Below the pieces are notes generated by a model. That model was not told the DNA's origin. It saw only the letters and a list, made by a program, of their open reading frames with translations, and searched no databases. Below, one piece after another: positions 12,033 through 43,230 of a DNA stretch of 64,000 nucleotides. The DNA is from Candidatus Latescibacterota bacterium. GTDB lineage: Bacteria; Krumholzibacteriota; Krumholzibacteriia; WVZY01. The stretch spans positions 192,001 to 256,000 of the forward strand of contig CAWBQK010000011.1 of assembly GCA_963791045.1 (NCBI GenBank). Direction: 5' to 3'. Position 1 is the stretch's first letter. Each line of letters begins with the position of its first letter. The position numbers and the translations under genes were made by a program.

Positions 12033-13988
12033 TCAGTTTTTTCTCTTCCAAAATGACGCGAAAATAGACTGTTTTTGCCCGCTCTGTTCTTTTTGACGCC
12101 GGACAAAGTTTCTGAAAGAAGAGGAGCATATGGTGAGCACGCCCTCCTTCTCCAATAGATATCCCTGGCGGATGAGTTCCTCGTTTACGAATCTGAATTT
12201 TGCGTTGATGGTTTTTTCGAGCGCCACACGGGATAGGTTTTCTTGTGAGAGTTCATCCATGTGATCCCACACGAACTGATAGTGAGGAAACGCCTCCTCG
12301 TTGAAATCGCGCGAAATCTGATCCCAATCCGGTTCGGAATCCGGATGGTCGATCAGATTCTCGAAGATGTTCGAGCTCGCGATCTGGAGGTAGAAAGGGA
12401 ATAAGCCCGCGAGATCGATGATTTTGTCGGCGAACGACTCGAGCGGAATGCCCTCGGAGTTTGAAGGCACGGTTATCAATTCCAGCGCCTCGTCCCGGTT
12501 GAATGGACGCAGAGGAAGATTTGAAAAGATATTGAAAAACGGCGAGTCGGAGATGTCTTTGTTATGGCACATGAGCTGGAGTTCCTGGTACGACGACGTA
12601 ACGTATGCCATACGGTAGCTGTTGGCGAGGGATCTCAGGTAAGAAAAGAACTGCTCTTCAAACCTCTCGTTCCCGGTAATCGAATCGAACTCATCCATCA
12701 GGATGATCAGTCGCTTGCCGTCGGTGTTGATCTTGTTGACGACATCTTTGAGTTGTTCGAGTGTCCTGTCGCGGTCGGCTACCTCCACGGCGCCCTTTGC
12801 CTCGTATTCGAGTAGGTTGAACAACAGATCTATGAATCCTTCGACACCAAAATCGTAGTGCCGCTGAAAGTCCATATAAACAAAGATGGCGGATTCGTTG
12901 TTCTGCATGTGACGGCGGCGGTTGTCGGCGTTGTACACGTGGTTCAAAAGCGACGACTTGCCGATCCGCCGATCGCCTACAATCGATATCGACTGGGGGT
13001 GCGGTGCGTCGAGGCGTGAGTAGATTCTGCGAACTTCTCGTCGGCGTCCGAAAAAGTCGGACGGATTCTGAATCATCACCCGGTTGACGTATGGGTTGCG
13101 CTCGGCAACGCGCCGGCTGGACAGATCTCGCATGATCCCGCTTTCGAGACCCGCCTTGCTTGACCCGCCGCTCAATTCGGGTATCGCGGTCTTCAATTCT
13201 TCGAGGATCTCCGTGAAGTCACGCGGACGGTTTTGGGGATCCTTCTCCAGACACCGCTTCAATAAGCTGTTTATCTCGTCCGGAACTTCGTCGGGGTATT
13301 CGACATCGATTTCATTGAGGATCAAATACATGAGGGCGGTAGGATGTTCCGCTACGAACGGGAAGCGACCGCTTACGAGCCGAAAAAGATCCACGCCGAA
13401 AGCGAAGATGTCGGTTCGCTCGTCTACACGTTCCCCCCGAATCTGTTCGGGAGCCATAAACTGCGGTGTGCCCGCCGTTCCATGGCTTGTGGTGGTCATC
13501 TGCCGGTGTACGAATTTTGCCAAACCAAAATCGAGAATTCGAACCTGCTTTCCCTCCGCGGGAGACTGACTGACCATAATGTTTTTGAGCGTGAGATCGC
13601 GATGGATGATTCCGAGACCGTGCGCGTACGCCATCCCCTTGCAGATTCCCTCCGCGAACTTGCATGCCTGGAGAGCGCCGAGCGAAGAGTTGTCCGCGAG
13701 ATCCATCAGCGACGGACCATCGATGAATTCCATGACAAAATACGGCCGATTTTTATGTTCGCCCGCGTCGTAGATTGTCACGATGTTGGGATGGTTGAGC
13801 TTTGCGAGGGACTCCATCTCGCGATGAAATTTTCGTTCGAAAGACGAGCCCGGATCGATCTCATTCATCACCTTGATGGCCACAGGTCTGTTCAGTTTCA
13901 GGTCGAGTCCCTGGTAGACTGTGCCAAAGCCACCTTTACCGACACGTCGTTCGATCTTGTACTTATCGTCTAAAAGGGCTCCAATCAT
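12033..13988 (-). CDS. Ser/Thr protein kinase fused to a STAND-like P-loop ATPase
   Basis: GKGGFG, VAIK, HRDL, DFG and APE kinase motifs; then NPY...FFGR, Walker A GDRRIGKS, Walker B ILMDEFD. Confidence 0.9.
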   Translation of the reverse strand: MIGALLDDKYKIERRVGKGGFGTVYQGLDLKLNRPVAIKVMNEIDPGSSFERKFHREMESLAKLNHPNIVTIYDAGEHKNRPYFVMEFIDGPSLMDLADNSSLGALQACKFAEGICKGMAYAHGLGIIHRDLTLKNIMVSQSPAEGKQVRILDFGLAKFVHRQMTTTSHGTAGTPQFMAPEQIRGERVDERTDIFAFGVDLFRLVSGRFPFVAEHPTALMYLILNEIDVEYPDEVPDEINSLLKRCLEKDPQNRPRDFTEILEELKTAIPELSGGSSKAGLESGIMRDLSSRRVAERNPYVNRVMIQNPSDFFGRRREVRRIYSRLDAPHPQSISIVGDRRIGKSSLLNHVYNADNRRRHMQNNESAIFVYMDFQRHYDFGVEGFIDLLFNLLEYEAKGAVEVADRDRTLEQLKDVVNKINTDGKRLIILMDEFDSITGNERFEEQFFSYLRSLANSYRMAYVTSSYQELQLMCHNKDISDSPFFNIFSNLPLRPFNRDEALELITVPSNSEGIPLESFADKIIDLAGLFPFYLQIASSNIFENLIDHPDSEPDWDQISRDFNEEAFPHYQFVWDHMDELSQENLSRVALEKTINAKFRFVNEELIRQGYLLEKEGVLTICSSSFRNFVRRQKEQSGQKQSIFASFWKRKN

Positions 13989-16201
13989 GGGGTTTTCGCT
14001 CCAAACCGGTGCTGGAATCGCACCGTGTCCCGTGAAGTGATGGTCAGTGTTTTAAGAATGTTTTCGTATTGAGGGTGCCGAAGTTCGATCTCATGAGCGC
14101 CTTCATCCAGGGACATCGAAAAATAGACGGCGTTTTCCTCTCTCATCTCACCATCGATCCACAGTTCGGCATACGGCTGGACCTGAATGATCAACATTCC
14201 GGGCGGAAGCTTCTCAAGTGACGCTTCGAAGAGATGATCGGGCGCGGGTACGCTGAGGTCAGTTAAGCGGTTGATATACCCGGCCTTGCGGAGTTCGACC
14301 GAGTGATTACCGTGTGAGATCGAAGAGAAGCTCTTCGGCGTCGATCCCATCAATTTGCCGTCCATGTATATCTCGGCCCCGACGGGATTGGAGACGATCG
14401 TGAGCGGCGACATCAGCAGCGAAAACGAGTGGCTGATAGTCCGCACTGAGTCCTCGATGACTTCGGCGTCGGTTATGTTTCCCGCATTGAAACCGGACAG
14501 GCGAAGCTGGATTCTATGTTTTTTGATTACCGAGAGATTGTCGAGTGTTGCCGGTGTAGACAAGCCGGTGCTTTTGCCATCGAGATAGATGGTTGCCCCC
14601 GGAGGTGTCGATATTATGCGAAGATCACCGGTCTTTTCGGTGAGTGACACGGCTTTGTCGAACGCTTCGTCTCTATTGAGCCGCAGCGTGTCGGTGTAAT
14701 CCCTGTAGCCGACAAGCTCGATTCTTAAGGGGGTGTCCTTGACAGGCAACGGCCGGTTTTCGATGGGGGACCGTCCCGCCCAGTTCCCATCAATTATCAC
14801 GGTTGCGTTTGAAGGAGTTGTGCGGATCGTCACCTCCGTCGAATCCATGATAACGGCTTCAGGTTGCGTCACGGCTACTGGTTGACTTTGATTCCGGTTC
14901 AAAAAGGAGATAACGACGATTGCCGAGACAATCAATGCCGCCGCGGCGCCGACGAGCCACAATCTCGATTTGGACTTCGATCGATCGACGGCAACAACAC
15001 CCGTCGCGGGATTGATCGCTGTGTTGCCGATCTCCTCGACGGCTTGCCAGATGGAGTGCATACGGGAAATCCACAAACGCCACAGGTCCATCTTGAACCG
15101 ATAGGCGGTTTTTGGTCCGCCATCCTTATCGAGTAAATCGTGATAAAAAAGTTTCTCCAGGGATTCATTTAGTTTCGCTTCATCGATTCGGTATCCAATA
15201 CGGTGGTTTTCCGCAAAAGAAATAATTTCTTTGGGAGTAACGGCTTTTTGATCTTCCTTTGCCAACTCGCCGATGATCGACAGGGCGAGTTTTTCCATCA
15301 CGGACAGTGAACTCCAACTGAAGATCATCTGGGGAAGAGGATTCTCAATGATTTCATCGGTCGTACGAAGAAGATCCTCGGCCGTGACCGTATACGAATG
15401 GCGTTCGTTCAGATGATCGACGAGAGTCTGGCAAAAGACCTGAGTGTAAAACGGCTGTCCGGACGTGAGTTCGTAAACACGTTCTGGAACGCCGTCCTCG
15501 TACGTGATTACTCCGTCGAGGGGGTGTTTGATCAAACCCAGAGTGTCGGAGTGGCTGAGGTAACTAATACGGCGATGGAGCGACTTGCCGAGGAATCGTT
15601 CCCAATATTCGGCGGAACGTTCCTCGAGCTTGTCAGATCCCGTGAATATGATAAACAGGCCTTCTTTGTGTTCGATCCAGTTGGCGAACAGGTTGAGGAT
15701 TTCCGTGCTTATCAGTTGTTTCGAAATGTGAGACTCGAAAATCTCGTATTCATCGAACAGCAAGACGAGCTTCTTGCCCGCCAGGTGCTCGTTAATCTTA
15801 AAAATGAGTTTGTGAAAGACTTCAAGTGGATTGTCAGCGTCGACAATGGTCTCGCTGTGGCGTGTGATATCTGGGTCGCCGATCGCTTCGACAATGCCCG
15901 CCGCCAGTTTGACAAGAAAATCCCGGTCGTTCTCAACCGTCATCGATTGCATATCGATAAGCACGGGGACGAACTCGTCGCCCAACCGGCCGTCTTTTAC
16001 CTGGAACAAGATGGACGTCTTGCCGCTTCGTCGGCTCCCGCAAAGGACGAGCATTCCACCCTTTTTCCCGCCGGTGACATTTCGCTTTATGTAGGCGAAA
16101 TCCTCCTCGCGGCCGAAAAACATTTTCCGGCCTTTGATGGGATTGCCAACGATATAGGGGTTGTCTATCCGACGGAAATTATCACTCGAGGAAGTGACCA
16201 T
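13985..16201 (-). CDS. STAND-like ATPase with transmembrane helix and C-terminal PEGA repeats
   Basis: NPYIVGNP..FFGRE, GSRRSGKTS, LLFDEYE; TM LWLVGAAAALIVSAIVVISFL; about four PEGA units (TTPSNATVIIDG, STPPGATIYLDG, SNPVGAEIYMDG, VQPYAELWIDG). Confidence 0.85.
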   Translation of the reverse strand: MVTSSSDNFRRIDNPYIVGNPIKGRKMFFGREEDFAYIKRNVTGGKKGGMLVLCGSRRSGKTSILFQVKDGRLGDEFVPVLIDMQSMTVENDRDFLVKLAAGIVEAIGDPDITRHSETIVDADNPLEVFHKLIFKINEHLAGKKLVLLFDEYEIFESHISKQLISTEILNLFANWIEHKEGLFIIFTGSDKLEERSAEYWERFLGKSLHRRISYLSHSDTLGLIKHPLDGVITYEDGVPERVYELTSGQPFYTQVFCQTLVDHLNERHSYTVTAEDLLRTTDEIIENPLPQMIFSWSSLSVMEKLALSIIGELAKEDQKAVTPKEIISFAENHRIGYRIDEAKLNESLEKLFYHDLLDKDGGPKTAYRFKMDLWRLWISRMHSIWQAVEEIGNTAINPATGVVAVDRSKSKSRLWLVGAAAALIVSAIVVISFLNRNQSQPVAVTQPEAVIMDSTEVTIRTTPSNATVIIDGNWAGRSPIENRPLPVKDTPLRIELVGYRDYTDTLRLNRDEAFDKAVSLTEKTGDLRIISTPPGATIYLDGKSTGLSTPATLDNLSVIKKHRIQLRLSGFNAGNITDAEVIEDSVRTISHSFSLLMSPLTIVSNPVGAEIYMDGKLMGSTPKSFSSISHGNHSVELRKAGYINRLTDLSVPAPDHLFEASLEKLPPGMLIIQVQPYAELWIDGEMREENAVYFSMSLDEGAHEIELRHPQYENILKTLTITSRDTVRFQHRFGAKTP

Positions 16202-16256
16202 TTAGACTCTTTCTGCAAAGTGCCCGGGCTCGCCTGCTTTGTACGACTCTATCAGG

Positions 16257-17024
16257 TCAGTTTGTCGGCGGTTCCGGTGGCTCGCTCAGTGCCGTCGGTT
16301 CGGGCGGGGCGTCGTCTTCGCCACCGCTAAGCCCAACAGCGAGCAGCACGCCGGCCACGGCTACCGCGCCAACCCGCCAGAGCCACCACTTCTTGTCCCG
16401 GTCGCGGCTCATTGACAGCGAGAGATTCAGCTTGTCGTCGGGTTGCACCTGAATCGTTTCTGTGTAGTCTTTGTAGCCGGAGCGTGTCAAAACAAGGGTA
16501 TGCTGACCGACGGGGACGTACGCGAGAACCAATGGCGTGTCACCCTTGTGTACTGTATCCAGGAACACGCGGGCTTCTTCCGGTTTGCGAATCGTCAACG
16601 AACCGAACATCTCTTTTCGAAGCCGGTCGTAAGTGACATTTACCTGCGGAGTAAACGTCAATTCATCCGCCGTCAGGTCGGGAAAGCGTTCGAGCGCCTG
16701 CCGGGCACTCGACTCGGCATTTGGCTCGTCTCGCTTGGTGATGTGGGTGAAAACCAGGTTGTTGTAGGCCTGTCGGAGAACATCCTCGGAGTCCGAGTAT
16801 TCGCTTATGATGTCGTTCAACAGGGCAATTGCCCTATCAAACTCACCGTTAAATCGGAGGGAGCTTATCTCCTCCCACTTCTGATAAATTGAATCGTCCT
16901 CTTGTTGTTGAGCTAGGGCTGGAGGTGGAAAGCAAGGGATGAGAGAGCCGAATATGAAGGCAGAAAGCATGCAAACGCATATCCAACGGCTGGGCAACCG
17001 TTTGGGTCGGGTCCGCCAAAGCAA
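16257..17024 (-). CDS. Exported TPR-like plus PEGA domain protein with C-terminal hydrophobic helix
   Basis: RBS AAAGGAGG before TTG 17024; signal peptide; helical repeat segment; PEGA (EEARVFLD...GDTPL...GY); KKWWLW plus hydrophobic tail; promoter TTGACG-17-TACAAT at 17097-17125. Confidence 0.8.
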   Translation of the reverse strand: MLWRTRPKRLPSRWICVCMLSAFIFGSLIPCFPPPALAQQQEDDSIYQKWEEISSLRFNGEFDRAIALLNDIISEYSDSEDVLRQAYNNLVFTHITKRDEPNAESSARQALERFPDLTADELTFTPQVNVTYDRLRKEMFGSLTIRKPEEARVFLDTVHKGDTPLVLAYVPVGQHTLVLTRSGYKDYTETIQVQPDDKLNLSLSMSRDRDKKWWLWRVGAVAVAGVLLAVGLSGGEDDAPPEPTALSEPPEPPTN

Positions 17025-17567
17025 TGGCTTACCTCCTTTTTGAAACGTCATGCGAAGCGAGATGTGCTGAGCTGGAGTTTTTTCAACGCTCCCGGGATTG
17101 TACCTTATGTCAGGCGGTTCGTCAATCGGTCAACTTGGTATTTACTAGTCACTTAAGAATCAGGATCATGCGGTTTTGGCCTGGAGGGACAGTTGTGCCG
17201 CTCCCGACCGAGTTGGAACAATCGGGAACGTGAGAAAAGCCATCCGATTAACTCCCGGACGGCTTTCCTCTCGCGGTGCCTCTGACGGCACGAATATAAA
17301 TACGTTTTCTAAGGGCCGGGCGCACTTCGCCGCACAGACAAATACGACGCCCGGGATATCGAAGGCCATGTTCAATAAGTATGGATGCAGTTTGGAAGAT
17401 GGAACACGAGTATTATACCGCAAAACTCGCCCCGAGTCTATTTGACTTTTGTCAGGTTTTGTAACGACAAAAGTCGTGTTGCGGTCGTCATTGAAAGTCA
17501 CGAAAGAGCGCAGTGGTGTGCGACGAACCCGATTGCATTGTGGACAAGTTTTGCAAGAAAATAAGTA

Positions 17568-21838: not shown

Positions 21839-21872
21839 GACGGGCGATGGCGGCATCGCCCGTCTTTTTTGT
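21839..21872 (+). terminator. Intrinsic terminator after phhA
   Basis: GACGGGCGATG-GCGG-CATCGCCCGTC followed by TTTTTT. Confidence 0.85.
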
Positions 21873-21953
21873 TAGCCGGTTGGGTGACGCTGCGGGTGGG
21901 GTTTTTGTCAAACAACGCTTTACGAATCCTCGTTTGTATGATACCATTGCGTT

Positions 21954-22121
21954 GATTCTCAGTTTGAAGGCACTCGTTTCTTAAGCACTTTGTTTGGTGA
22001 AGAAAGTCATTTTCAGGGTGAAGGTGACCCGTGCCGTACCTCTTATATGCCTTTCCCCTAGGCGAGGTACATTACGGGTAGACCAAAGAGGGACGCTCAA
22101 AGCGTCCCTCTTTGCTTTTTT
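21954..22121 (+). ncRNA. Candidate small structured RNA
   Basis: Own promoter TTTACG-17-TACCAT with extended TG (21919-21947); long hairpin 22027-22079; terminator 22084-22121; no ORF with an RBS. Confidence 0.5.
22084..22121. terminator. Intrinsic terminator, likely bidirectional
   Basis: CAAAGAGGGACGC-TCAAA-GCGTCCCTCTTTG followed by a T run. Confidence 0.8.
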
Positions 22122-22135
22122 GGCGGGGAATCCCA

Positions 22136-22348
22136 CTATTTCCGCGCCGCCGTTCGTTTGAGATACGGCCTCAGAACGAACGGGAACCACACCCCCATCG
22201 CTAGTCCAAGATACAGAATCCAAATGATCAACCCCGAGTGATTCCAGTTGCCGATTTGATTCGATAGAATGCCCAGGACGACGGCCAGGATCAGGGGAAA
22301 CGCCACAACTGCTCGCAGGAATTCGGTCGCATCGCTTGCTCGACTCAT
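22136..22348 (-). CDS. Small two-TM membrane protein, putative immunity factor
   Basis: 70 aa with two hydrophobic segments and a basic tail; RBS AGGAGG overlaps the upstream TAA. Confidence 0.7.
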   Translation of the reverse strand: MSRASDATEFLRAVVAFPLILAVVLGILSNQIGNWNHSGLIIWILYLGLAMGVWFPFVLRPYLKRTAARK

Positions 22349-22357
22349 GTCGCCTCC

Positions 22358-23059
22358 TTAAAGTTGAGCGATCGAACACTGTATAAATGCATAGACAGCG
22401 TGTCCGGCCGCGCAAACCGCTATGCATTGGAGATATCCGCCGGGCGCGTACAGACAGAGATAAGCACAGCTGATTCCGCCCGCGACCATGCGTTCGCTGA
22501 TGCACCGAAGCCACTGTCGCCATGAGATTCTCGCTGCCGCCGGATCGATGTCAGCGGTGCACGCGGTTGAAGGCGGCCCGCTCAAGCCGATCCATACGTC
22601 ATCGCCGATCTGTTCGAAATCATTCCCAGGCGCCTCTTTTGAAAAGGTCAGCGTGACGGGAACGACGACTTTTCTATCGATGCCGTGGAGACAGAAGAGA
22701 TATACCGCGTCGTGGCTGGGATCTGTCGTGTTCTCCATGACGAGTGTCGTAATCTTTACTTCTCCACCGCCATCTCTTTCGCCTTCGACATAGAAGGAGT
22801 ACTCGGGCGTCAGTGTATACCCCGCTTTTTCGAAGCTTTCGATTTCGGCGGTGACCGCGGGGTCGGTCAGAGCGTCTTCGAGCGATTGAATTGTGTGCGG
22901 GTTCTTCGAGTCGAAGAACGCTGCGGTTATCCCATCCTCCTCGGTTACAATGTCCGGTGTTTTTGTGACGGCAGGTCTCACCGTCGACGTGTCCCGCTCG
23001 TTGCAAGCGAAACACAAAAACATCACTGGTAGAAACATCCACACGAACCGTTTCATCAC
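22358..23059 (-). CDS. Lipoprotein with C-terminal six-Cys hydrophobic peptide domain (halocin C8 / bacteriocin-precursor-like)
   Basis: RBS GAGGAGG; lipobox CFAC; acidic body; C-terminal C-x11-C-x3-C-x9-C-x3-C-x11-C. Confidence 0.75.
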   Translation of the reverse strand: MMKRFVWMFLPVMFLCFACNERDTSTVRPAVTKTPDIVTEEDGITAAFFDSKNPHTIQSLEDALTDPAVTAEIESFEKAGYTLTPEYSFYVEGERDGGGEVKITTLVMENTTDPSHDAVYLFCLHGIDRKVVVPVTLTFSKEAPGNDFEQIGDDVWIGLSGPPSTACTADIDPAAARISWRQWLRCISERMVAGGISCAYLCLYAPGGYLQCIAVCAAGHAVYAFIQCSIAQL

Positions 23060-23255
23060 ATCCTCCTCACGTCATCGTGTTGGTTCGTCCCGTGCGTCCA
23101 GGTTTTTGGCGCCCGTATGGTCATCGCCGCGGGTCCTGGGCCGCGAAAGGTGTGCCCGGGCGAGCGCAGCAACACGCTTCGTGCAGTCAGGGGGACTTGC
23201 ACAGGGAAGGTTCAGTCGCCCGGGCAGTCTCGTCATTACGACGACATGTGTATAC

Positions 23256-23270
23256 GCATGATGAGTGCCA
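23256..23270 (-). promoter_or_regulatory. sigma54 promoter of the lipoprotein / small membrane protein pair
   Basis: Minus strand TGGCACT-CATC-ATGC. Confidence 0.65.
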
Positions 23271-23477: not shown

Positions 23478-24899
23478 TTGAACCGCTTTTTACTCCTACT
23501 CGTTGTTATTGTGTGTTTGCGCGCGGGGGCGGCAGCCGCGGCGACCGTTCCGCAGCCGCCCGAAGAGGACAACCAGGAATACGTGCTCGATATCGTAACC
23601 AACCAATACAACCGGTTGTGGCGCGAGACGTGGGATGCCGGGGACAACAGGTTTCGTTTTCGACTTGGGAGCAACAATGTTGCCCAGTGGTTTCTCGAGG
23701 AGGAGTTGAAGGTCGCCGTTCAGCTCCACCAGCGGCTTCGGTTTCGCTTCTATCACGCACGGCTGGATCGTTTCTCGACCGAGAGGATTCCGTGGGATGT
23801 CCTCGAATTCGAGGGGCAGGTGTACGGCAGAAACTATCTTTCCTTTTATGCGCGGCCCACTTTTGACAAGCGCGATGGCTCGCTCGGGTTCATGTATCAA
23901 CACCGGCGCGCGGTCAACCAGTACATCAAAGTGTCCGTCGAGTGGCCGGGTTTTATGCGAAATTATTCCGAGCATCATCGCAACACCTCGGACAGTCTTT
24001 TGAATGTGTACACCGATAAACCCATCCGGTTCGCGTTCGACCTGCGTGAGAAGATCATTCCCAATGTGTGGGTGCGTGCGCGCGGCGAGCTGGTGCCGTC
24101 GTTCGAAATGGGCGAAGAAGTGACGGCCACCGGTGTCACGTATCCCAAAGAGCGGGCGGAAGCGAAGGCGATCGAGGGGTGGGTGGAATATATTGTCGAT
24201 CCGTCGCGTGAAGTGCGAGATCAGACGGCGGTCGGTATCAGCGGATTGTACAGAAGAACGCGAAAATCAAAAGACCCCCAGAGCGATACGTCATGGTTCG
24301 ACAATGGTGTTGTGTGGAATGAATCGTCGCCCGGGTCGCAAGGGACGCCTGGCGCTTCCGGATCTGAGCGGGGGGCTCTGCGGCCATTTGCCGTACCGGA
24401 GACCGAGTTCGATCCCGATCTATTCGAGCGGACCGATGACGATACAGTTCAGGCGTGGAGGGAAACATGGTGGTTCGTGTCGGCGTACGCGTGGGTTCCC
24501 GTGACCGATCGGATCACCCTTCGCGGGACGCTCCGGTTCGAGGACCGCAACATTAGTGTCGGCAATGACATGGCACAGACTTTTTCGACGACGAGCGAAT
24601 ACGTCGTGCCGCTGTTGGCCGCACGGTATGGGCTGGGTGAGCGGAGGCAGTATCAGATCGAGGCGGGGTATGCGTCCGAGTTTCGGACGCGGACGGATGA
24701 GTGGATCGAATCCCCAGACACGCAGGAGACCATTGCCAAGGACGACTTCGACGACCACCGGATCTTCGTCGGTTTCGAGTACGTTTTCGGGGAGACCAAC
24801 ATGATCCGGTTTATCGAGGCGTTCGAACTCGATGCCGAGGATCGTGGGGATTTCAAAATCCACGACCACGGTTTTTTTCAGTTAATTGTCGGGTTCTAA
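23478..24899 (+). CDS. Putative outer membrane beta-barrel protein, unknown function
   Basis: Signal peptide after TTG 23478; amphipathic strands; ends FFQLIVGF (terminal Phe). Confidence 0.65.
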   Translation: MNRFLLLLVVIVCLRAGAAAAATVPQPPEEDNQEYVLDIVTNQYNRLWRETWDAGDNRFRFRLGSNNVAQWFLEEELKVAVQLHQRLRFRFYHARLDRFSTERIPWDVLEFEGQVYGRNYLSFYARPTFDKRDGSLGFMYQHRRAVNQYIKVSVEWPGFMRNYSEHHRNTSDSLLNVYTDKPIRFAFDLREKIIPNVWVRARGELVPSFEMGEEVTATGVTYPKERAEAKAIEGWVEYIVDPSREVRDQTAVGISGLYRRTRKSKDPQSDTSWFDNGVVWNESSPGSQGTPGASGSERGALRPFAVPETEFDPDLFERTDDDTVQAWRETWWFVSAYAWVPVTDRITLRGTLRFEDRNISVGNDMAQTFSTTSEYVVPLLAARYGLGERRQYQIEAGYASEFRTRTDEWIESPDTQETIAKDDFDDHRIFVGFEYVFGETNMIRFIEAFELDAEDRGDFKIHDHGFFQLIVGF

Positions 24900-27229: not shown

Positions 27230-30200
27230 GTGATGGCGTCTCCAACCCCTGATTTTCCCCGATACGAAGTGCTCACGCCCCTGGGCGAGGGCGCGGTAGC
27301 GACCGTATTCAAGGTGCGTTCGTCGAAAGACGGCTCCATCCGGGCGCTCAAGGCGCTCAAGCCGGAGCAGGCCGAGACGGAACGGGCCATCGCGCGCTTC
27401 GAAGACGAGTACAGGATTCTGAGCAATCTCCATCATCCCAGCCTCCCAGATGTTAACGATTATGGTGTGGCGCCGGACGGCACGCGGTTCATCGTCATGG
27501 AATATCTCGAGGGCGAGCCGCTCGACGAGTATCTCGCCGCGCATCCCGAGGATTTCTGGACGCTTCTTTTTCAGATGAATGAGGCGCTCGCATTCATCCA
27601 CGAACACGATCTTCTTCATCTCGATCTCAAGCCGGGGAATATCCTCGTCCGTAGAAGCCGCGCGTTTGGCGAGCGCGAGATGCCGCTCGTCATGCTCATC
27701 GACTTTGGGCTCAGCTACCGCCGTGAGTCCGGCGGCAAGGTCAAGCTCGTCGGAACGCCGGGGTACATGTCGCCCGAAGTTATTCGTGGAGAGGAGAACA
27801 TTACCCGCGCCGCCGATTATTACTCGCTCGGTGTCATTCTCTACGAACTTACCGAAGGCCGGCTGCCTTTTGCCGGAAGCATGCATGACATCCTCCGCGC
27901 GCATCTCACTCGCAAGGTGACCTTCGAGGCGAGGAAGGTCGAGTTTGCGGAGCTTGTTCCCTGGATCGAGAATCTCATGGCCAAAGAGCCGCAGGCGCGG
28001 CTGGCGGCATTTCAAGATTATCAGCGGACGATGGCGGCACGGATGGGGGATGACGCGGCCGAGATGGAGCGGGTGTTTGCGCTTGGTTACATCGATTCGC
28101 TCGGACTTGTGGGAAAGGAAGAGGCGTGGGACGAGCTCCGAACCTGGGCGGAAAAGCTCGCCGCCGCTGTTGAGTCGCGATCGACGGGTGTGCCGGCGGG
28201 TTCCGGTGAGGCCGCCGTGGCGGTACCGGATCTTGATGTCCCGGATCCCGACAGTGTTTTGAAGGGAAGCGTCACCGATCTCGAAAAACGGATCCAGGAG
28301 GATCTGCTCGCGAGTGCTGCCGTTCGCGAGAAAACCGAGGGCCCTATTGCGGAAATCCCCCGTGTGTTGGCCGTGTCCGGGCCGCCCGAGAGTGGGAAGA
28401 CCCACGTGCTCGACACGCTTGCGACGGAGATTCGGGTTCGAGGGATGCAGGTATTGCGGCTCGGTGAAGATAGTGACTACCCCACCATCGTTGGGGACGC
28501 GGGGAAGAAATCACAGAAGCCTTCCAGTGCCGTCGATCCGGCGGCACTTACCACAGACCGGTTTGTCGCGGGGTGGGAGAAACTCGTGTCGCTTGCCGAG
28601 GGGGCCGGTGCTGTTCTCGTTGCTGACGACCTCACGCGGCTTAGCGGCGAGGAACGGGACTTTTTGGAGTACGTGGGCAAACGGCTTGGCCATGTCGTGT
28701 CCGAGGGGACCGAGCCCAATCTATTTATTATTTGCGTAGGGAAATCAAAACCCGTCCGAGAGGTTCTTCGACCAGCGTTGATAGGTGATGGCGCGTTTGC
28801 GTCGATCGAGGTCCCGCCGCCCGGGACCGATGATGTCGAGGCAATCTCCGAGAGGTTCCGCGGGCATCTCTCCGGCCGCGCCGAGCAGCAGTCGCTCGAA
28901 GTGTTCCTGCGGAAACACCTCCAGTCGAGTACCGCACTATATGCGTCTTTGAAACAGGGAATATCCGAGGATGCGCTCGTACATCGGATTGGCAAGTGGG
29001 CATTTCACGAGAGCCGGGCGAGTGCGATCGAGCTCACCAAATCTTCCGTTGAATATTACGAGAGTCTTTTTGAAGAGCTTGCTGATAACGCCAAAGATCT
29101 TGTCGGTTGGCTTGCCTGTCATCCGCAGGCTCTGACTGTCGATGAGTTAGCCCAGGTGTCTGACCTGTCCGTGAGTCAAATCGTGGTCGCGAGCGAGGCA
29201 CTTCTGCCGTACCGGATCATCGATGTCGCGGATACCGACAAGGGTCGACGGATCGAGATGATCAGCGATCACGTCCGCGGTGGGATGTACAAAGCCCTTC
29301 GGAAAAAAGACCGGAATCGTATTCACAACCGGTACATCAGCTACTTTGGCGATCACGGAGATGACTCGATTGCCTACTTTGAAATGATGGCGCATCACTT
29401 CGCGAAGGTCCGCCGGGTTCGAGAATCACTCATCATGCAGGTACGTGCGGTGACGCGCGCGCGGCGGGATCGGGACGTATTCGCGCTCCGGCGGTTGTGT
29501 AAGGCCGGGATCGAGTATGTTCGCCGCCTCAGAAGCGCCGAGTGGAAAGACCACAAAGAGTCCATCGAAAGATACTTCATCAAGCAATGGATCAATGCCG
29601 AATGGATGGTGTCGAATTACAAAAATTTGATTGAAATTATTCAGCGAAACCGTGAAACAACTGGTGGGAACATCCCGATCGGTCATCGATATCGCTATGC
29701 AGTTGCGCTCGAACGAACTAATAAGCCACAATTGAGCGTAGAAATAGTTGAGGAGGGGCTCAAAGAACTTCGTGATTGGCCTTGTGAGACTTATCATCGA
29801 TTGTTGATTCAAAGAGCGAATATTCTAACAACTTTTGAACAGACAGATGATTCTTTGGGGATACTGGAGAAGGTCGATCTCACTTGTATTTCAACCGAAG
29901 ATCTCGCCCGTTACTACATCATAAAAATGATCAACTATGATAGAAGCGGAGAGCAAGAATCGTACGCAAAATATTTGGAGAAAGCTCGGGTTACATCCGA
30001 TCAACATGGGCATATTGAGCATCTTGTGAGGGCTCACTACAGCGAGGGACAGTCCTTGCTGAACCAATCTCGTTTTCAAGAAGCCAAGAGCATAATTGCT
30101 TCGTCTGTGAGGCTTGCGCACAAGACCCGCTATTATCGTGGGTTGTGCATTATGTACTTTTTGGGGAGTGCCGTGTTCTTTGAAGAGGGCAAATTCCAAC

Positions 30201-31090
30201 GAGCACTTTACTATTTAGATAAATCAATGAAGATAGCCGTAGACAACGGCTTGCTGACGGACGCGGATGAATTCGGTATCAGATATGCAATGATTTATCA
30301 GAACGTGGGTCTCTGGGGTGACGCTGTTAGTAGTTTAGAATCGATCAGAAAGCGTACGGATACAAGGGATGCCCTTGAACATCACTTTTATGCAACAGTC
30401 CTGTTGTTCAACATCTTGTCGTCTCTTAACTCTCGATTAATATCATCAGTCGCCGACCGACTTGAAACCATGATAGAGAGAATTAAAGCGCGCTACAGGG
30501 CTGCGGTATATTACCAAGTTCTTGGCGAGTTCTTGAAAACAAAGGATCGTCTTGACGAAGCGATCGGTGCCCTGGAGAAAGCCAAAGAGCTTTACGCGGC
30601 CATCGGATATAGTGACGATCTTGCCAGGACTGATATTGTCGTAGCAATGATCCGAATTGAACAACGCGAGTTCGATGAAGCCCGGAACATTATCGACCAT
30701 GTGGGGTCTCAAATTGGCGACATGGAGTCCAATAATGTGAGAGGGCAGTACTTATTAGTTGAGTTGCTGTATCATCAAGCTGCGAATACAAGTAAAACTG
30801 ATTTGTTCAGGTGGATAGGCCGCTGTGAAGATATCATGAATCAAGTGACCGAGATGGACCTGTTGATGAAACTCAATGCGAGCCTTTTTAGAGTTTTAGT
30901 AAAAGTGGGAGAGGTAGGGCGAGGACTAGAATATTTCCATCGTTACTATAGCCAAATGAGAAAAATTGTGTCTGGACTCCAGAGGAGTGAGTTAGTTGAC
31001 GATTTTAGCAATAGTCCAGAATTCTTAGGCTTGGTCGAAGAATATAGGGGGGTCACAAAAAACGGCCCAGGTCATTCATCTGGTGACTGA
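27230..31090 (+). CDS. Ser/Thr kinase - P-loop ATPase - TPR multidomain protein
   Basis: GEGAVA, ALK, HLDLKPGN, DFG, GTPGYMSPE; Walker A GPPESGKT; Walker B VLVADD; long helical-repeat C-terminus. Confidence 0.88.
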   Translation: MMASPTPDFPRYEVLTPLGEGAVATVFKVRSSKDGSIRALKALKPEQAETERAIARFEDEYRILSNLHHPSLPDVNDYGVAPDGTRFIVMEYLEGEPLDEYLAAHPEDFWTLLFQMNEALAFIHEHDLLHLDLKPGNILVRRSRAFGEREMPLVMLIDFGLSYRRESGGKVKLVGTPGYMSPEVIRGEENITRAADYYSLGVILYELTEGRLPFAGSMHDILRAHLTRKVTFEARKVEFAELVPWIENLMAKEPQARLAAFQDYQRTMAARMGDDAAEMERVFALGYIDSLGLVGKEEAWDELRTWAEKLAAAVESRSTGVPAGSGEAAVAVPDLDVPDPDSVLKGSVTDLEKRIQEDLLASAAVREKTEGPIAEIPRVLAVSGPPESGKTHVLDTLATEIRVRGMQVLRLGEDSDYPTIVGDAGKKSQKPSSAVDPAALTTDRFVAGWEKLVSLAEGAGAVLVADDLTRLSGEERDFLEYVGKRLGHVVSEGTEPNLFIICVGKSKPVREVLRPALIGDGAFASIEVPPPGTDDVEAISERFRGHLSGRAEQQSLEVFLRKHLQSSTALYASLKQGISEDALVHRIGKWAFHESRASAIELTKSSVEYYESLFEELADNAKDLVGWLACHPQALTVDELAQVSDLSVSQIVVASEALLPYRIIDVADTDKGRRIEMISDHVRGGMYKALRKKDRNRIHNRYISYFGDHGDDSIAYFEMMAHHFAKVRRVRESLIMQVRAVTRARRDRDVFALRRLCKAGIEYVRRLRSAEWKDHKESIERYFIKQWINAEWMVSNYKNLIEIIQRNRETTGGNIPIGHRYRYAVALERTNKPQLSVEIVEEGLKELRDWPCETYHRLLIQRANILTTFEQTDDSLGILEKVDLTCISTEDLARYYIIKMINYDRSGEQESYAKYLEKARVTSDQHGHIEHLVRAHYSEGQSLLNQSRFQEAKSIIASSVRLAHKTRYYRGLCIMYFLGSAVFFEEGKFQRALYYLDKSMKIAVDNGLLTDADEFGIRYAMIYQNVGLWGDAVSSLESIRKRTDTRDALEHHFYATVLLFNILSSLNSRLISSVADRLETMIERIKARYRAAVYYQVLGEFLKTKDRLDEAIGALEKAKELYAAIGYSDDLARTDIVVAMIRIEQREFDEARNIIDHVGSQIGDMESNNVRGQYLLVELLYHQAANTSKTDLFRWIGRCEDIMNQVTEMDLLMKLNASLFRVLVKVGEVGRGLEYFHRYYSQMRKIVSGLQRSELVDDFSNSPEFLGLVEEYRGVTKNGPGHSSGD

Positions 31091-31684: not shown

Positions 31685-31736
31685 CTCTTCTACCCCCTAA
31701 GTTGACTTCCCAAAACGTCAGGCGATGAACAGTAAG

Positions 31737-31751
31737 GCAAGCGGGGGACCA
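31737..31751 (-). promoter_or_regulatory. sigma54 promoter of the ZU5-like gene
   Basis: Minus strand TGGTCCC-CCGC-TTGC. Confidence 0.6.
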
Positions 31752-32489
31752 TGCTCACGCGTGGGCCAGCAGCCCAGTTGTTTTTTTGAAAAGTTGAATT
31801 GTCCAATGCCTAAGAGGGCGAGGTCTATGTGCTTGTGGTGAAACAGGTTAGGGCGCGGGTCGTCCCGTCTGTATGTCAGAGTTGGAATTGTCCAGCGGTG
31901 AAATACGAAGCCCGGGTTTAAAGCGAATTCTTTTGAGTTGGGGCTTGGAACGATTCCACGGATGTAGATGACCTGGAGTTTGATTTGTAACCCGTTAAAT
32001 CACAGGCGTTTTTCGGGTTTGTGGCGGCCTTGCGCCACTGTGGTGTTTTTTTAGCTGTGAACAGAACCTAATTACCCATTGTTTCCAACTATCCCAAAGG
32101 GTAACCGATTGCCTCCGATCGAATCGAAAGGAGAATTCGTATTGTTTCCAATGATTCCTCCATTGCGAGCTTCAGAGGTCTGTCGACGTGAGACGAGCGA
32201 AGATAAATCGCAGATATTGATTCGAAGAGATTTGGCTTATTTCAGCAAACGAGAGTACTCAGCAATTTTCTTTGCGCGGAACACAGAGAACTTTGGTCCC
32301 CCCTGGGGGTCGACGTGCTGCACATTCAATCCGCATCGCTGCCTCCGCATAGTCAGACCAAGTGAATCCCAGCAGATGTTGTGTGAGGCAACGAGCCCAA
32401 ATCGTTCCCTCACACAACACGTTCAGCAAGTTGACGCCGAAAAACAAGCCGTTGTTTCGACGTCAATGTGTTAGTCGGATCTCCAATGG

Positions 32490-32504
32490 GCAAGCTGCGT
32501 ACCA
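32490..32504 (-). promoter_or_regulatory. sigma54 promoter driving an orphan transcript
   Basis: Minus strand TGGTACG-CAGC-TTGC; AT-rich IHF-like tract upstream; palindrome TGTCAATATATTGACA at 32654-32669. Confidence 0.7.
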
Positions 32505-32653
32505 CGCTTAAGACTTCGTTAACTTGTGTGTTTTCAATGAGGTCATGGTTTTAAGGTACGGATTCGAGAATTTTTTATGTGACAAATTTTCTTTACACTA
32601 TCGTATGTTAAGGGATTGTAATTGATTCGCTGAATCTATTGGCACTGACCGGT

Positions 32654-32669
32654 TGTCAATATATTGACA
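32654..32669. promoter_or_regulatory. Perfect palindrome, candidate sigma54-activator binding site
   Basis: TGTCAATATATTGACA (TGT-N10-ACA), about 150 bp upstream of the 32490 promoter. Confidence 0.6.
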
Positions 32670-32794
32670 CCGTTTCTCCAATCTTGGCAAAAATCAATTT
32701 AACGGTTCATGTTATAGGCGTTGATGAGCGCACCCAAACTGATCGGCCAATATTGGGGCGTTAACTAGGCAGTTGCTCATTGTGCAAAATATTG

Positions 32795-32823
32795 TTGAGT
32801 AGAAGGTTACAGTCTGATATAAT
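32795..32823 (+). promoter_or_regulatory. sigma70-type promoter of the peptide / activator operon
   Basis: TTGAGT-17-TATAAT with extended TG. Confidence 0.65.
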
Positions 32824-33061
32824 TCAATCCTCAGGGTGTCCTTCGATAGAGCTTTGACTTGACGGATATAAACGGATTACCAGAAATAAGCTGGGTTATT
32901 CGCATGTTGAAGCGACCACCACAATTGACGAGACTTATGAGTACGGTGCCCAACCGGCTGAAGCTCATCTCGTTTCCGCAAACCTGCGGTTCACAATCAG
33001 AGTCTGTCCGATCCTGTCCTTCCCCCGGTTATCTCGTGTTAGTCAAAAGAGGTGTTACACG

Positions 33062-41766: not shown

Positions 41767-43230
41767 ATGCGGAGATACGTGACCCTCGCGATTCTGCTGG
41801 TCGTCTTCACTCTGGCCTTCTCAAGAGCACGGCCGCCCCAACAGGTTGCCCCCACAGCAGTTAAAGCCAAGCGCACCCTCAGGATTCCCCGGTCGGATTC
41901 CCTGACGTTGGATGACCTCAAGCCCAGGGTCGCCCGGCTGGCAATGCTCAGGACGGAGCTCAAAAACCGGCGGTTTCTCGCGAGTGTGGCCCGCAACCGT
42001 CCCGGAATCGATCTTCAAGCAGTTGCCCGGCAATTCAACATAAGACTCGCGCCGGACCTTCGCGAATTCAGTATCCGCGACATCGAGATCGAAGTGTATG
42101 AGATCGAGAGGGTGTTTATTACGGCGGGCCTGACATACGGATCCGAAGACATCGAGGATGTTTACGATGAGCCGCCCCTGGATCCCACCACCGCGGCGCC
42201 GTTTGTGGACAACGAGAAGGTTCTCTACGTCGCGCGCTCGGTCGTGGCGATCGTCAAACGAACGGCGATGACGAAGGTGGGCAGCGAATGGCACATGCAG
42301 CTCAAACCGTTCAACACTATTCTCGGCGGTTACGGGGATTACTGCGAATTCGAAACATCGTACAACGCGCCGGCGACCCGCGCCGCTGGCACCGGTTTTC
42401 TGGTAGCGCCGGACATTATTGCCACGGCGGGACACGTCATCGACAGGCTCAGCATAAATCCGGCGGCCGCGCTCGACTCGGTCTATTTTGTTTTTGATTT
42501 CGTATTGAAATCAGATGGCGAGACCAAAGCCGTGTTCACCGAAGATGAAGTGTACGAGGGCACGGAAGTCATCGAAAAAAGAACGGGGATGCAGGCGGAC
42601 TGGGCGCTCGTTCGGCTCAACCGTGCCGCCGTCGATCGCGACCCGCTGGAGTATCGGCAGTCGGGCAAGATAGACGACGAGTCGTCCATATACATGATCG
42701 GTCATCCGAATGGGTTGCCGCAGAAGTATTCCGGGCCCGCCAGCGTCACCGAAAACACGCCGTGCGCGTATTTCCTCGGCAACCTCGACACCGGCCCGTA
42801 CAACTCGGGCTCTCCAGTCTTCAACGTAGATAACCATACCGTCGAAGGGATACTCGTCCGCGACATCGGCAATTTCGAGGAGATCTGCGACTGTTTCAAG
42901 GCGGCGCAGTACTCGCCGCGCATGGGCATCCCCGGCGTCGATGTGGTCAGAACCACCGAGTTCGCCGGATACCTGTCGAACCCCGATTCGTACCTGGTCC
43001 GATGCGAAGTGGATGACGGCGACCTGGCGGCGATCATCTCGTTTCCCGCCGACACGGTTTATATGGAAAAAGGCGAGTTTGTGCGGCTGGACTACGATAA
43101 CTGGGGAATCGAGCTCCTGGTATCATCGACGTGCAGGATTCTCTATTACCCCGAGAGGGGAACCGTGTGGGACATCACAAGCGTCCCCGGAACCGATCTC
43201 ACTAAAATGGAACAGGCGTGCTATCCATGA
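41767..43230 (+). CDS. Exported trypsin-like (S1) serine protease
   Basis: RBS GGAGG; signal peptide; GTGFLV, TAGHV, DWALV, IGHP.G.P.K, NSGSPV. Confidence 0.85.
   Translation: MRRYVTLAILLVVFTLAFSRARPPQQVAPTAVKAKRTLRIPRSDSLTLDDLKPRVARLAMLRTELKNRRFLASVARNRPGIDLQAVARQFNIRLAPDLREFSIRDIEIEVYEIERVFITAGLTYGSEDIEDVYDEPPLDPTTAAPFVDNEKVLYVARSVVAIVKRTAMTKVGSEWHMQLKPFNTILGGYGDYCEFETSYNAPATRAAGTGFLVAPDIIATAGHVIDRLSINPAAALDSVYFVFDFVLKSDGETKAVFTEDEVYEGTEVIEKRTGMQADWALVRLNRAAVDRDPLEYRQSGKIDDESSIYMIGHPNGLPQKYSGPASVTENTPCAYFLGNLDTGPYNSGSPVFNVDNHTVEGILVRDIGNFEEICDCFKAAQYSPRMGIPGVDVVRTTEFAGYLSNPDSYLVRCEVDDGDLAAIISFPADTVYMEKGEFVRLDYDNWGIELLVSSTCRILYYPERGTVWDITSVPGTDLTKMEQACYP

Follow-up and report, generated by a model that had tools for sequence, protein, structure and literature searches.

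A putative lipoprotein with a six-cysteine helical hairpin and its coupled two-helix membrane protein: a possible envelope module in a Latescibacterota-like bacterium

Introduction

What is a lipoprotein for if it ends in a hydrophobic peptide with six mirror-placed cysteines, and if its gene is coupled to that of a tiny membrane protein? This question is raised by two adjacent genes on the minus strand at positions 22136 to 23056 of a stretch of 64,000 nucleotides (the window) from a Candidatus Latescibacterota bacterium (assembly GCA_963791045.1, contig CAWBQK010000011.1, positions 192,001 to 256,000). Latescibacterota are a phylum known mostly from metagenome-assembled genomes (MAGs). The initial annotation, made from the letters of the sequence without database searches, had proposed a sigma-54-driven bacteriocin/immunity pair, in which a helical hairpin with nested disulfides would be the toxin and the lipoprotein its carrier.

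We arrive at a different and tentative answer. With somewhat less than even confidence, we take the two genes to form an envelope module that a Latescibacterota-like bacterium has inherited vertically, and not a mobile weapon. The favoured form of this reading is a housekeeping or stress-related module in which the hairpin is retained on its carrier, because the hairpin is not variable, the small gene is conserved, and a block of four genes that includes the pair is evenly diverged.

Results

A lipoprotein-type gene with an acidic body and a six-cysteine tail

The larger of the two genes (P0003; 22358..23056, minus strand) encodes 232 amino acids followed by a stop codon. It is defined by its open reading frame (ORF), by a database copy that also has 232 residues and likewise begins MKRF, and by 78 related protein clusters. 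The start codon is the ATG at 23056, with the Shine-Dalgarno sequence GGAGG (23062..23066, minus strand) 5 nt upstream. A GTG at 23059 was considered as the start and rejected, because it sits too near the GGAGG. The string GGAGGATGTGATG at this Shine-Dalgarno sequence was also found in a related locus, L001 (CP070677.1, a Candidatus Latescibacterota MAG), whose lipoprotein is 41% identical to the window copy. L001 was recovered with an alignment of four sequences; broader alignments lacked a stretch that was conserved enough.

The N-terminus of the protein, MKRFVWMFLPVMFLCFAC, contains a signal peptide with a lipobox (residues 1-18, LCFAC, Cys18; 23003..23056, minus strand), judged by column conservation and by a PROSITE-style rule, with no dedicated predictor. 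Of the 74 relatives aligned, 64 have cysteine in the Cys18 column; among the 10 exceptions, 8 are gaps. The window copy deviates from the rule by a Cys at position -3. Among the 64 relatives with Cys18, 44 conform to the strict rule, and 51 do so if Cys is allowed at -3/-4. We propose from these features that the protein would be exported by the Sec system and anchored by a lipid. Acidic residues are frequent after the lipid-bearing cysteine, at +3 in 44% and at +4 in 41% of the family. They recall, without matching, the surface-export signal K-(D/E)2 of Bacteroidetes (PMC5080379).

The signal peptide is followed by an acidic alpha/beta body (residues 19-159; 22580..23002, minus strand), delimited by the structure prediction described below and by composition. 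Residues 19-175 contain 29 D+E versus 10 K+R (isoelectric point, pI, 4.16), and across the family the body carries a mean net charge of -11.6. A linker (residues 160-178; 22523..22579, minus strand) includes the motif DPAAA, which is not conserved. The linker is variable in length, with an insertion of 31 amino acids in the relative P0005, and no conserved cleavage motif was seen in it among the family members compared.

The 57 residues after DPAAA (176-232) differ in character from the body, with a grand average of hydropathy of +0.74 and a pI of 8.66. Most of this tail is taken up by an apolar hairpin (residues 179-232; 22361..22522, minus strand) with cysteines at positions 185, 197, 201, 211, 215 and 227, that is, with the mirror-symmetric spacing C-x11-C-x3-C-x9-C-x3-C-x11-C. 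The lipoprotein signal, the acidic body, the hydrophobic tail and the six-cysteine spacing were all part of the initial annotation, and each was borne out by the sequence.

Predicted fold and cysteine pairing

AlphaFold2, run on an alignment of 74 sequences, returned a model of the lipoprotein with a mean predicted local distance difference test score (pLDDT) of 89.7 and a predicted template modelling score (pTM) of 0.79. The pLDDT was 93-98 across residues 31-160 and about 65 in the linker (160-178). In the model, the body consists of two short helices (53-63 and 66-77) and about nine strands between residues 36 and 158, and the tail forms two antiparallel helices (179-203 and 205-231, pLDDT 91-95) with a turn at 204-207. 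The central strands of the body are apolar on both faces (e.g. VYLFCL and VVVPVTL), which fits a sheet that is covered on both sides. The hairpin probably packs against the body, since by our estimate a pTM of 0.79 over 232 residues, allowing for about 50 poorly placed residues in the signal peptide region and the linker, would not be reached without confident placement of the hairpin.

Residues 201/211, 197/215 and 185/227 mirror each other about residue 206, and because the hairpin is antiparallel the members of each pair should face each other. The alignment columns support such pairing. The cysteine set of the window copy is shared by 49 of the 74 members. In 19 others the middle pair has moved to positions 194 and 216, three members have no middle pair, one (P0042) has both middle pairs, and in two (P0015, P0077) the set is broken or truncated. 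Of the 74 sequences, 50 have both Cys197 and Cys215 and 24 have neither; none has one without the other. The same holds for Cys194 and Cys216 (both in 21, neither in 53, single in none). P0032 even has a fourth mirror-placed pair, with the spacing 3-7-3-9-3-7-3. The relatives are not independent, so that Fisher values for this covariation are overstated, but several distinct kinds of cysteine change all keep partners together. Covariation thus supports a bond between the second and the fifth cysteine, and the geometry of the predicted hairpin supports the outer (first to sixth) and inner (third to fourth) bonds, if, as we infer, the pairs are disulfides. The helical hairpin with nested pairing that had been postulated from the spacing agrees with both lines of evidence.

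Facing cysteine pairs could also serve in redox chemistry or soft-metal binding, as a thiol relay or a Cu, Hg or Fe-S site, in combination with the His/Trp loop of the small protein described below. Besides the six conserved cysteines, the invariant His37 in that loop and the presence of metal-efflux genes about 20 kb from the pair would suit such a role. However, some members lack the middle pair (3 of 74) or have it shifted by a turn (19 of 74) with nothing else changed, which suits structural staples better than a fixed active site. Neither the window protein nor the 74 relatives matched a thiol-oxidoreductase or metal-binding family in Pfam or NCBIfam, and no adjacent gene among the neighbours scanned encodes a redox partner. 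We consider a redox or metal role highly improbable.

Composition of the hairpin

Throughout the family, charged residues are nearly absent from positions 190-201 and 211-229 of the hairpin, and its composition is dominated by small and apolar residues (A 16%, G 11%, C 11%, V 9%). The nearly charge-free stretches are preceded by a basic collar rich in Trp (residues 177-184), and an aromatic residue, Tyr208, is found at the turn. The two helices differ in hydrophobicity. Mean Kyte-Doolittle values over 19 residues are 1.22 for helix 1 and 1.67 for helix 2, and hydrophobicity like that of a transmembrane (TM) segment (1.6 for helix 1) is reached by helix 1 in 11% and by helix 2 in 59% of the members. 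Helix 1 is not hydrophobic enough to halt transfer, so the tail is expected to pass through Sec into the periplasm.

Small residues spaced four apart are denser in the hairpin than in the body (small-xxx-small density 0.158 against 0.064). At least one GxxxG motif is present in 58% of the family hairpins; the window hairpin has none. These values raise the possibility that the hairpin is a true membrane anchor, a glycine-zipper-like insert of two helices as in SlyB and YfgH-type lipoproteins, placed in the outer or inner membrane, perhaps packed against the helices of the small protein, and organising or stabilising the envelope under stress. The lengths of the helices (25 and 27 residues), the collar and the charge-free stretches would all be in keeping with an anchor. 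Lipoproteins with a glycine-zipper 2TM element are an accepted kind (preprint 10.64898/2025.12.22.696046), and the sigma-54-type site discussed below would suit control by stress. Against an anchor stand the missing GxxxG in the window copy and the weak hydrophobicity of helix 1, and also the pTM of the model, which suggests a hairpin packed on the body and not free. Paired cysteines within a bilayer would moreover be unusual. The glycine-zipper 2TM family of Pfam was found in 0 of 74 relatives, and the NCBIfam model YiaD_Gzip_OmpA matched only weakly in two of the 74 (best E 0.33). On balance, the anchor is an improbable explanation.

Joint conservation of body and hairpin

A word-indexed search for relatives of the lipoprotein found two close relatives only. 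A full HMMER search with their profile identified 78 clusters (at 50% identity, E<=1e-3), 48 of them with E<=1e-10 and 12 with E<=1e-30. Nearly all have a length of 220-265 amino acids and were matched end to end. For family statistics, 74 of the 78 clusters were aligned. The remaining four were left out: P0035 is a fragment of 148 amino acids, the similarity of P0055 ends right after the first cysteine, and P0061, with 1274 amino acids, has repeat matches to profile positions 117-148. The fourth, P0057, is family-like in its first ~97 residues only, and continues with a GE-repeat, a hydrophobic stretch and RRRSR. This end resembles a C-terminal sorting tail, and it is the sole different C-terminus among the 78 matches.

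Body and hairpin occur together in 73 of the 78 clusters, and among the HMMER matches the hairpin was never found alone or on another carrier. A hidden Markov model (HMM) of the hairpin alone scores 68 bits on the window protein, so that by our estimate free-standing copies should have been detectable. The same model, applied to six-frame translations of the window and L001, retrieved the known copy in each and no more. We also considered the hairpin as a C-terminal sorting signal, and rejected this idea because the hairpin is found with this body only.

If the C-terminus were a toxin tip under diversification, as the initial annotation anticipated with its conserved N-terminus and variable C-terminus, the hairpin should be less conserved than the body. 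This was not observed. Over 2683 sequence pairs, the mean identity is 26.9% for the hairpin (20.2% without the cysteine columns) and 21.9% for the body. Judged by these identities, the hairpin evolves at the rate of the body and does not behave as a variable toxin tip.

Searches against known families and the toxin alternative

The window lipoprotein and the small protein gave nothing meaningful in Pfam or NCBIfam, even at E<=10. The 74 relatives gave scattered sub-threshold matches, mostly on the signal peptide; a match to 'invert_tail' could be set aside as irrelevant, as it covers residues 7-33 of P0034. PADLOC returned no match for the pair. A sequence profile search of the PDB reached a best E of 0.18, with signal-peptide matches only, and Foldseek returned 0 matches at E<=1e-3 against the PDB and viral models. 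The top PDB rows in Foldseek were START-domain entries and scattered helix-grip-like folds, with TM-scores of 0.2-0.36 that are too weak for use. In the ESM Atlas, the lipoprotein falls near unnamed 'Lipoprotein' clusters (0.90), which provided no lead. By these searches, neither Pfam nor NCBIfam nor the Atlas has a name for the family. Our literature searches were aimed at known analogues and none at this family; within that scope, no bacterial lipoprotein with a stapled twin-CX3C hairpin was found.

The initial annotation had leaned on a comparison with halocin C8. The halocin C8 model TIGR04449 did not match the window protein at E<=10 and matched 0 of 74 relatives at E<=1. TIGR04450 likewise failed to match the window protein at E<=10, and gave sub-threshold matches in two of the 74 (E 0.017 and 0.15; 14.7 and 11.6 bits at a cut-off of 27). 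They cover the hairpin region and align collinearly to the last ~50 of 240 model positions, but are not significant for a segment so rich in Cys, Gly and Ala. Bacteriocin_IIc matched one of the 74 relatives (E 0.034). The HalI-type immunity domain PF22862 was matched neither by the window protein (E<=10) nor by the 74 relatives (E<=0.1).

These results bear on the main alternative, namely that the pair encodes a toxin precursor with its immunity partner, following the logic of halocin C8 or the pore-forming colicins. The acidic, lipidated body would shelter and perhaps neutralise the stapled hairpin. With the linker cleaved, or with the protein on display at the surface, the hairpin would attack the membranes of neighbours, while the 70-aa inner membrane protein protects the producer. 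Much in the design of the pair would fit: an apolar, slightly basic hairpin rich in Gly, Ala and Cys opposite a strongly acidic body, a linker that is flexible and variable, and a small membrane gene that is conserved and translationally coupled. The weak TIGR04450 and Bacteriocin_IIc matches and the acidic residues at +3/+4 count on the same side. There are also precedents: the layout parallels that of the halocin C8 precursor ProC8 (preprint 10.64898/2026.07.27.741052), and plant alpha-hairpinins are antimicrobials cut from larger precursors (PMC11591084).

Against a toxin speak the lack of any significant match to the bacteriocin and halocin models, a hairpin that is no more variable than its carrier and was never seen free or on another carrier among the 78 matches, and a linker without a conserved cleavage motif. 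No transporter or protease was recognised among the neighbouring ORFs scanned. A tblastn search of plasmids and phages yielded no copy of the pair, and its composition (GC 0.546, GC at third codon positions 0.62-0.65) is ordinary for the window. Deep vertical synteny, at identities of 41-54%, and a small protein that is better conserved than the supposed toxin (both described below) point in the same direction. We give the toxin reading a minority chance, though a substantial one.

The small membrane protein and its linkage

The second gene of the pair (P0002; 22136..22348, minus strand) encodes a protein of 70 amino acids with two TM segments, as judged from its ORF, hydropathy and relatives. 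Its ATG lies 9 nt after the lipoprotein stop, and its Shine-Dalgarno sequence AGGAGG (22353..22358, minus strand) shares a base with the TAA stop codon of the lipoprotein gene, in agreement with the initial annotation, which had described a ribosome binding site on the stop codon. The two hydrophobic segments have mean Kyte-Doolittle values over 19 residues of 2.6 and 2.2. They are connected by a loop with an invariant His37, and the protein closes with a conserved end, WFPF..PYL(R/K)R. As both ends are basic, they would be located in the cytoplasm, with the short loop facing outward.

The family of the small protein appears narrow. Word-indexed searches identified 14 and then 20 related clusters, and the ones with an organism name are from MAGs, labelled either Latescibacterota or an unclassified 'bacterium'.

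Linkage of the two genes could be followed in four contexts, and the small gene was linked in all of them. The first is the window itself. In L001, the homologue of the small protein (64 amino acids, 50% identity) starts 9 nt after the lipoprotein stop, with a GAGG that overlaps the TGA. P0005, which is 65% identical to the lipoprotein, and P0088, which is 70% identical to the small protein, are each encoded on a contig of 3366 bp, and probably share this contig. The fourth context is P0015, a predicted read-through fusion of 299 amino acids. Its residues 1-193 are lipoprotein-like (39% identity), the full length of the small protein is recovered in its residues 234-299 (32% identity, E 1e-13), and the hairpin is out of frame; from its sequence, we regard P0015 as a sequencing frameshift or a decayed copy. 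Of the two traits that the initial annotation had expected of the downstream gene in homologues, linkage was found, but not variability: when L001 is compared with the window, identity is higher for the small protein (50%) than for the lipoprotein (41%).

A GC-rich hairpin with a 14-bp stem (22084..22114) lies just 3' of the small gene and likely ends the two-gene transcript of the minus strand. The run of T residues is on the plus strand, and in the plus-strand region 21870-22120 the hairpin might terminate transcription in both directions or mark where a small plus-strand transcript stops. The nearest plus-strand gene, for phenylalanine hydroxylase, has a terminator of its own at 21839-21864. 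Rfam and tRNA scans of the window gave no match.

The candidate sigma-54 promoter

Upstream of the lipoprotein gene, the word TGGCACtcatcATGCg (23255..23270, minus strand) resembles a -24/-12 element, with two mismatches to TGGCAC-N5-TTGCW and with the correct GG-N10-GC spacing. Such words are no more frequent here than in shuffled sequence. The window contains 25 sites with at most two mismatches versus 22.0 expected, and 29 of 100 shuffled sequences reach 25. On its own, the sigma-54 site named in the initial annotation is not above chance. L001 has a similar word on the same strand, CGGCACcggtcGTGCa (GGCAC-N6-TGC), which MAFFT aligned with TGGCACtcatcATGCg. The alignment around the two words does not exceed what GC-rich DNA would give, and their distances to the start codon differ, at about 190 nt in the window as opposed to about 430 nt in L001. 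Two genes for sigma-54 activators are present in the window, 12 and 29 kb from the pair. Sigma-54 control of the pair is possible on this evidence. As an observation apart from the sigma-54 word, the divergent intergenic region of L001 (5440-5620) contains many CGTGAC/GTCACG words, possibly binding sites of a regulator; the shorter region in the window has few.

Genomic neighbourhood

Divergently from the pair, a secreted protein is encoded on the plus strand (23478..24899; the ORF extends from 23403). It has a length of about 470 amino acids in both the window and L001 (54% identity), strand-like alternation, and ends in ...FFQLIVGF and ...IFEF, respectively. From these features, it is probably an outer membrane beta-barrel. 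The ESM Atlas places it near 'alginate export' clusters (0.97). In the Atlas cluster of rank 11, 19% of the members carry SlipAM, the Slam domain; we treat a Slam relationship as a lead only. Pfam gave no match for this protein even at E<=10, and an AlphaFold2 model from a two-sequence alignment was not usable (pLDDT 27).

Beyond the divergent gene, a large kinase/STAND/TPR protein follows in both the window and L001. Identities between the two loci are 49% for the kinase, 54% for the barrel-like protein, 41% for the lipoprotein and 50% for the small protein. By this comparison, the four-gene block is evenly diverged and looks vertically inherited.

The pair's neighbours are SppA, phenylalanine hydroxylase, the barrel-like protein, an FG-GAP protein and kinases. 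In a scan of the 12 larger neighbouring ORFs (5.1-31.1 kb), none was recognised as an exporter, protease, radical-SAM or other modification gene, or as part of a mobile element. Three window proteins have type IX secretion tails, in keeping with an organism of the FCB group.

Some further features of the window are recorded here. Ser/Thr kinases fused to STAND/AAA and TPR modules are unusually dense at 12033-17051 (minus strand) and at 27230-31090 and 43218-45806 (plus strand). These genes adjoin others for PEGA-domain proteins, and one of the kinase genes keeps its synteny with the pair in L001. A region of about 1.4 kb (31685-33060), flanked by a small lipoprotein-like ORF on one side and a TPR gene on the other, has a GC content of 0.46-0.48 versus 0.556 for the window, and contains no convincing ORF, tandem repeat or Rfam match. 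A DPP-IV/S9 peptidase appears to be split over two ORFs (58610-60694, minus strand) and a DUF5118/DUF5117/DUF4953 Met-zincin over three overlapping ORFs (61249-64000, plus strand); both splits are frameshifts or assembly errors.

Discussion

How might the pair work if it is an envelope module? We propose that the acidic beta-sheet body would carry a rigid C-terminal hairpin on a flexible linker of variable length. Three nested cysteine pairs (185-227, 197-215 and 201-211) would pin the nearly charge-free hairpin, which in the predicted resting state lies on the body. The small protein, translated in step with the lipoprotein, would sit in the inner membrane, where its two TM helices would leave both termini in the cytoplasm and expose a short loop with Trp and His to the periplasm, and would be the membrane partner of the hairpin. 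The hairpin itself would do the work: still attached to its carrier, it would serve as a stapled element for docking or for engaging a membrane. The divergent barrel-like protein may belong to the same system. Gene layout, family architecture, cysteine covariation and linkage were observed, and the fold was predicted by AlphaFold2; the disulfides, the packing of the hairpin on the body, its complex with the small protein and what the pair does in the cell are parts of the proposal.

Several points weigh against an envelope module. The make-up of the hairpin, rich in Ala, Gly and Cys and nearly free of charge, would also suit a toxin hairpin that inserts into membranes. An acidic carrier, a basic tail, a variable linker and a tiny downstream membrane protein together have the look of a precursor with its immunity gene, and the two weak TIGR04450 matches among the 74 members, to a model for an 'immunity/bacteriocin fusion', are C-terminally collinear. 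The packing of the hairpin on the body is argued from a single score, the pTM, and the partner role of the small protein is putative. Finally, the linkage contexts covered relatives down to about 39% identity, with a distant subgroup of spacing 8-6-9-4-10 outside.

In its most far-reaching form, the toxin reading would make the pair a new kind of membrane-active weapon of Gram-negative (FCB-group) bacteria. The acidic, lipid-anchored carrier would be a self-chaperone or pro-domain for a Gly/Ala-rich hairpin with three disulfides, displayed or released at the surface, with its own two-TM immunity protein and possibly with the divergent barrel as a dedicated component. It would be an independently arisen bacterial counterpart of halocin C8 and the plant alpha-hairpinins. 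We regard this whole as unlikely.

The pair defines a protein family that is named in no library, with 78 clusters at 50% identity and a confident predicted fold. Should the hairpin be a latent element for membrane insertion, the family would offer a simple two-gene model for carrying a hydrophobic hairpin through the periplasm and delivering it. If it is a toxin with its immunity partner, it would be a new type of bacteriocin. The covariation of the second and fifth cysteines provides a testable disulfide map under either reading.

The pair can be compared with several known systems. In pore-forming colicins, an Ala/Gly-rich hydrophobic helical hairpin is hidden in a soluble fold, and class IIa microcins are Gly-rich peptides containing disulfides; both have an adjacent gene for a small TM immunity protein. 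Unlike these, the pair described here has no receptor-binding or translocation domains, no double-glycine leader and no exporter, and shows no sequence similarity.

ProC8, the halocin C8 precursor of Natrinema, has 283 amino acids with an N-terminal immunity part and a C-terminal peptide of 76 amino acids that is freed by cleavage (preprint 10.64898/2026.07.27.741052). It resembles the lipoprotein in size, and in both a short peptide that is hydrophobic and rich in Cys comes after a larger N-terminal part. However, ProC8 has a Tat signal, whereas the protein described here has a lipoprotein signal with K2-R3 and no twin-arginine pair. Its six cysteines are arranged in a mirror pattern, and it has no significant match to TIGR04449, TIGR04450 or Hac8_like_N. 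The regulator and ABC transporter genes halR and halT1-3 adjoin the halocin gene and are not among the window neighbours scanned. The separate small membrane gene found here is something that ProC8 does not need.

Glycine-zipper 2TM lipoproteins (SlyB, YfgH, OsmB, YiaD) are likewise lipid-anchored and have a two-helix hairpin rich in small residues (preprint 10.64898/2025.12.22.696046). In the present family, the hairpin is C-terminal and stapled by cysteines, the window copy is without GxxxG, and no family match links the two. We know of no dedicated small inner membrane partner of glycine-zipper 2TM lipoproteins.

The hairpin itself has parallels in eukaryotes, with nested cysteine pairing across two antiparallel helices. 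Mitochondrial small Tim proteins are helical hairpins with a twin CX3C motif. Plant alpha-hairpinins are helix-loop-helix antimicrobials with the motif CX3C-Xn-CX3C that derive from larger precursors, and six-cysteine versions exist (PMC11591084). The same motif is present here (C197-x3-C201-x9-C211-x3-C215, within the cysteine set of 49 of the 74 members), and the helix-loop-helix is shared according to the AlphaFold2 prediction. The eukaryotic hairpins are polar or charged and free-standing or released, whereas the hairpin described here is bacterial, nearly free of charge, rich in Gly and Ala, and fused to a lipoprotein body. There is no match in Pfam, NCBIfam, PDB sequences or Foldseek (E<=1e-3). 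The likeness is one of fold and not of descent. The stapled twin-CX3C hairpin is a motif known from eukaryotic peptides and mitochondrial chaperones; here, a hairpin of this type forms the end of a bacterial lipoprotein, with a tiny membrane protein as its dedicated, putative partner.

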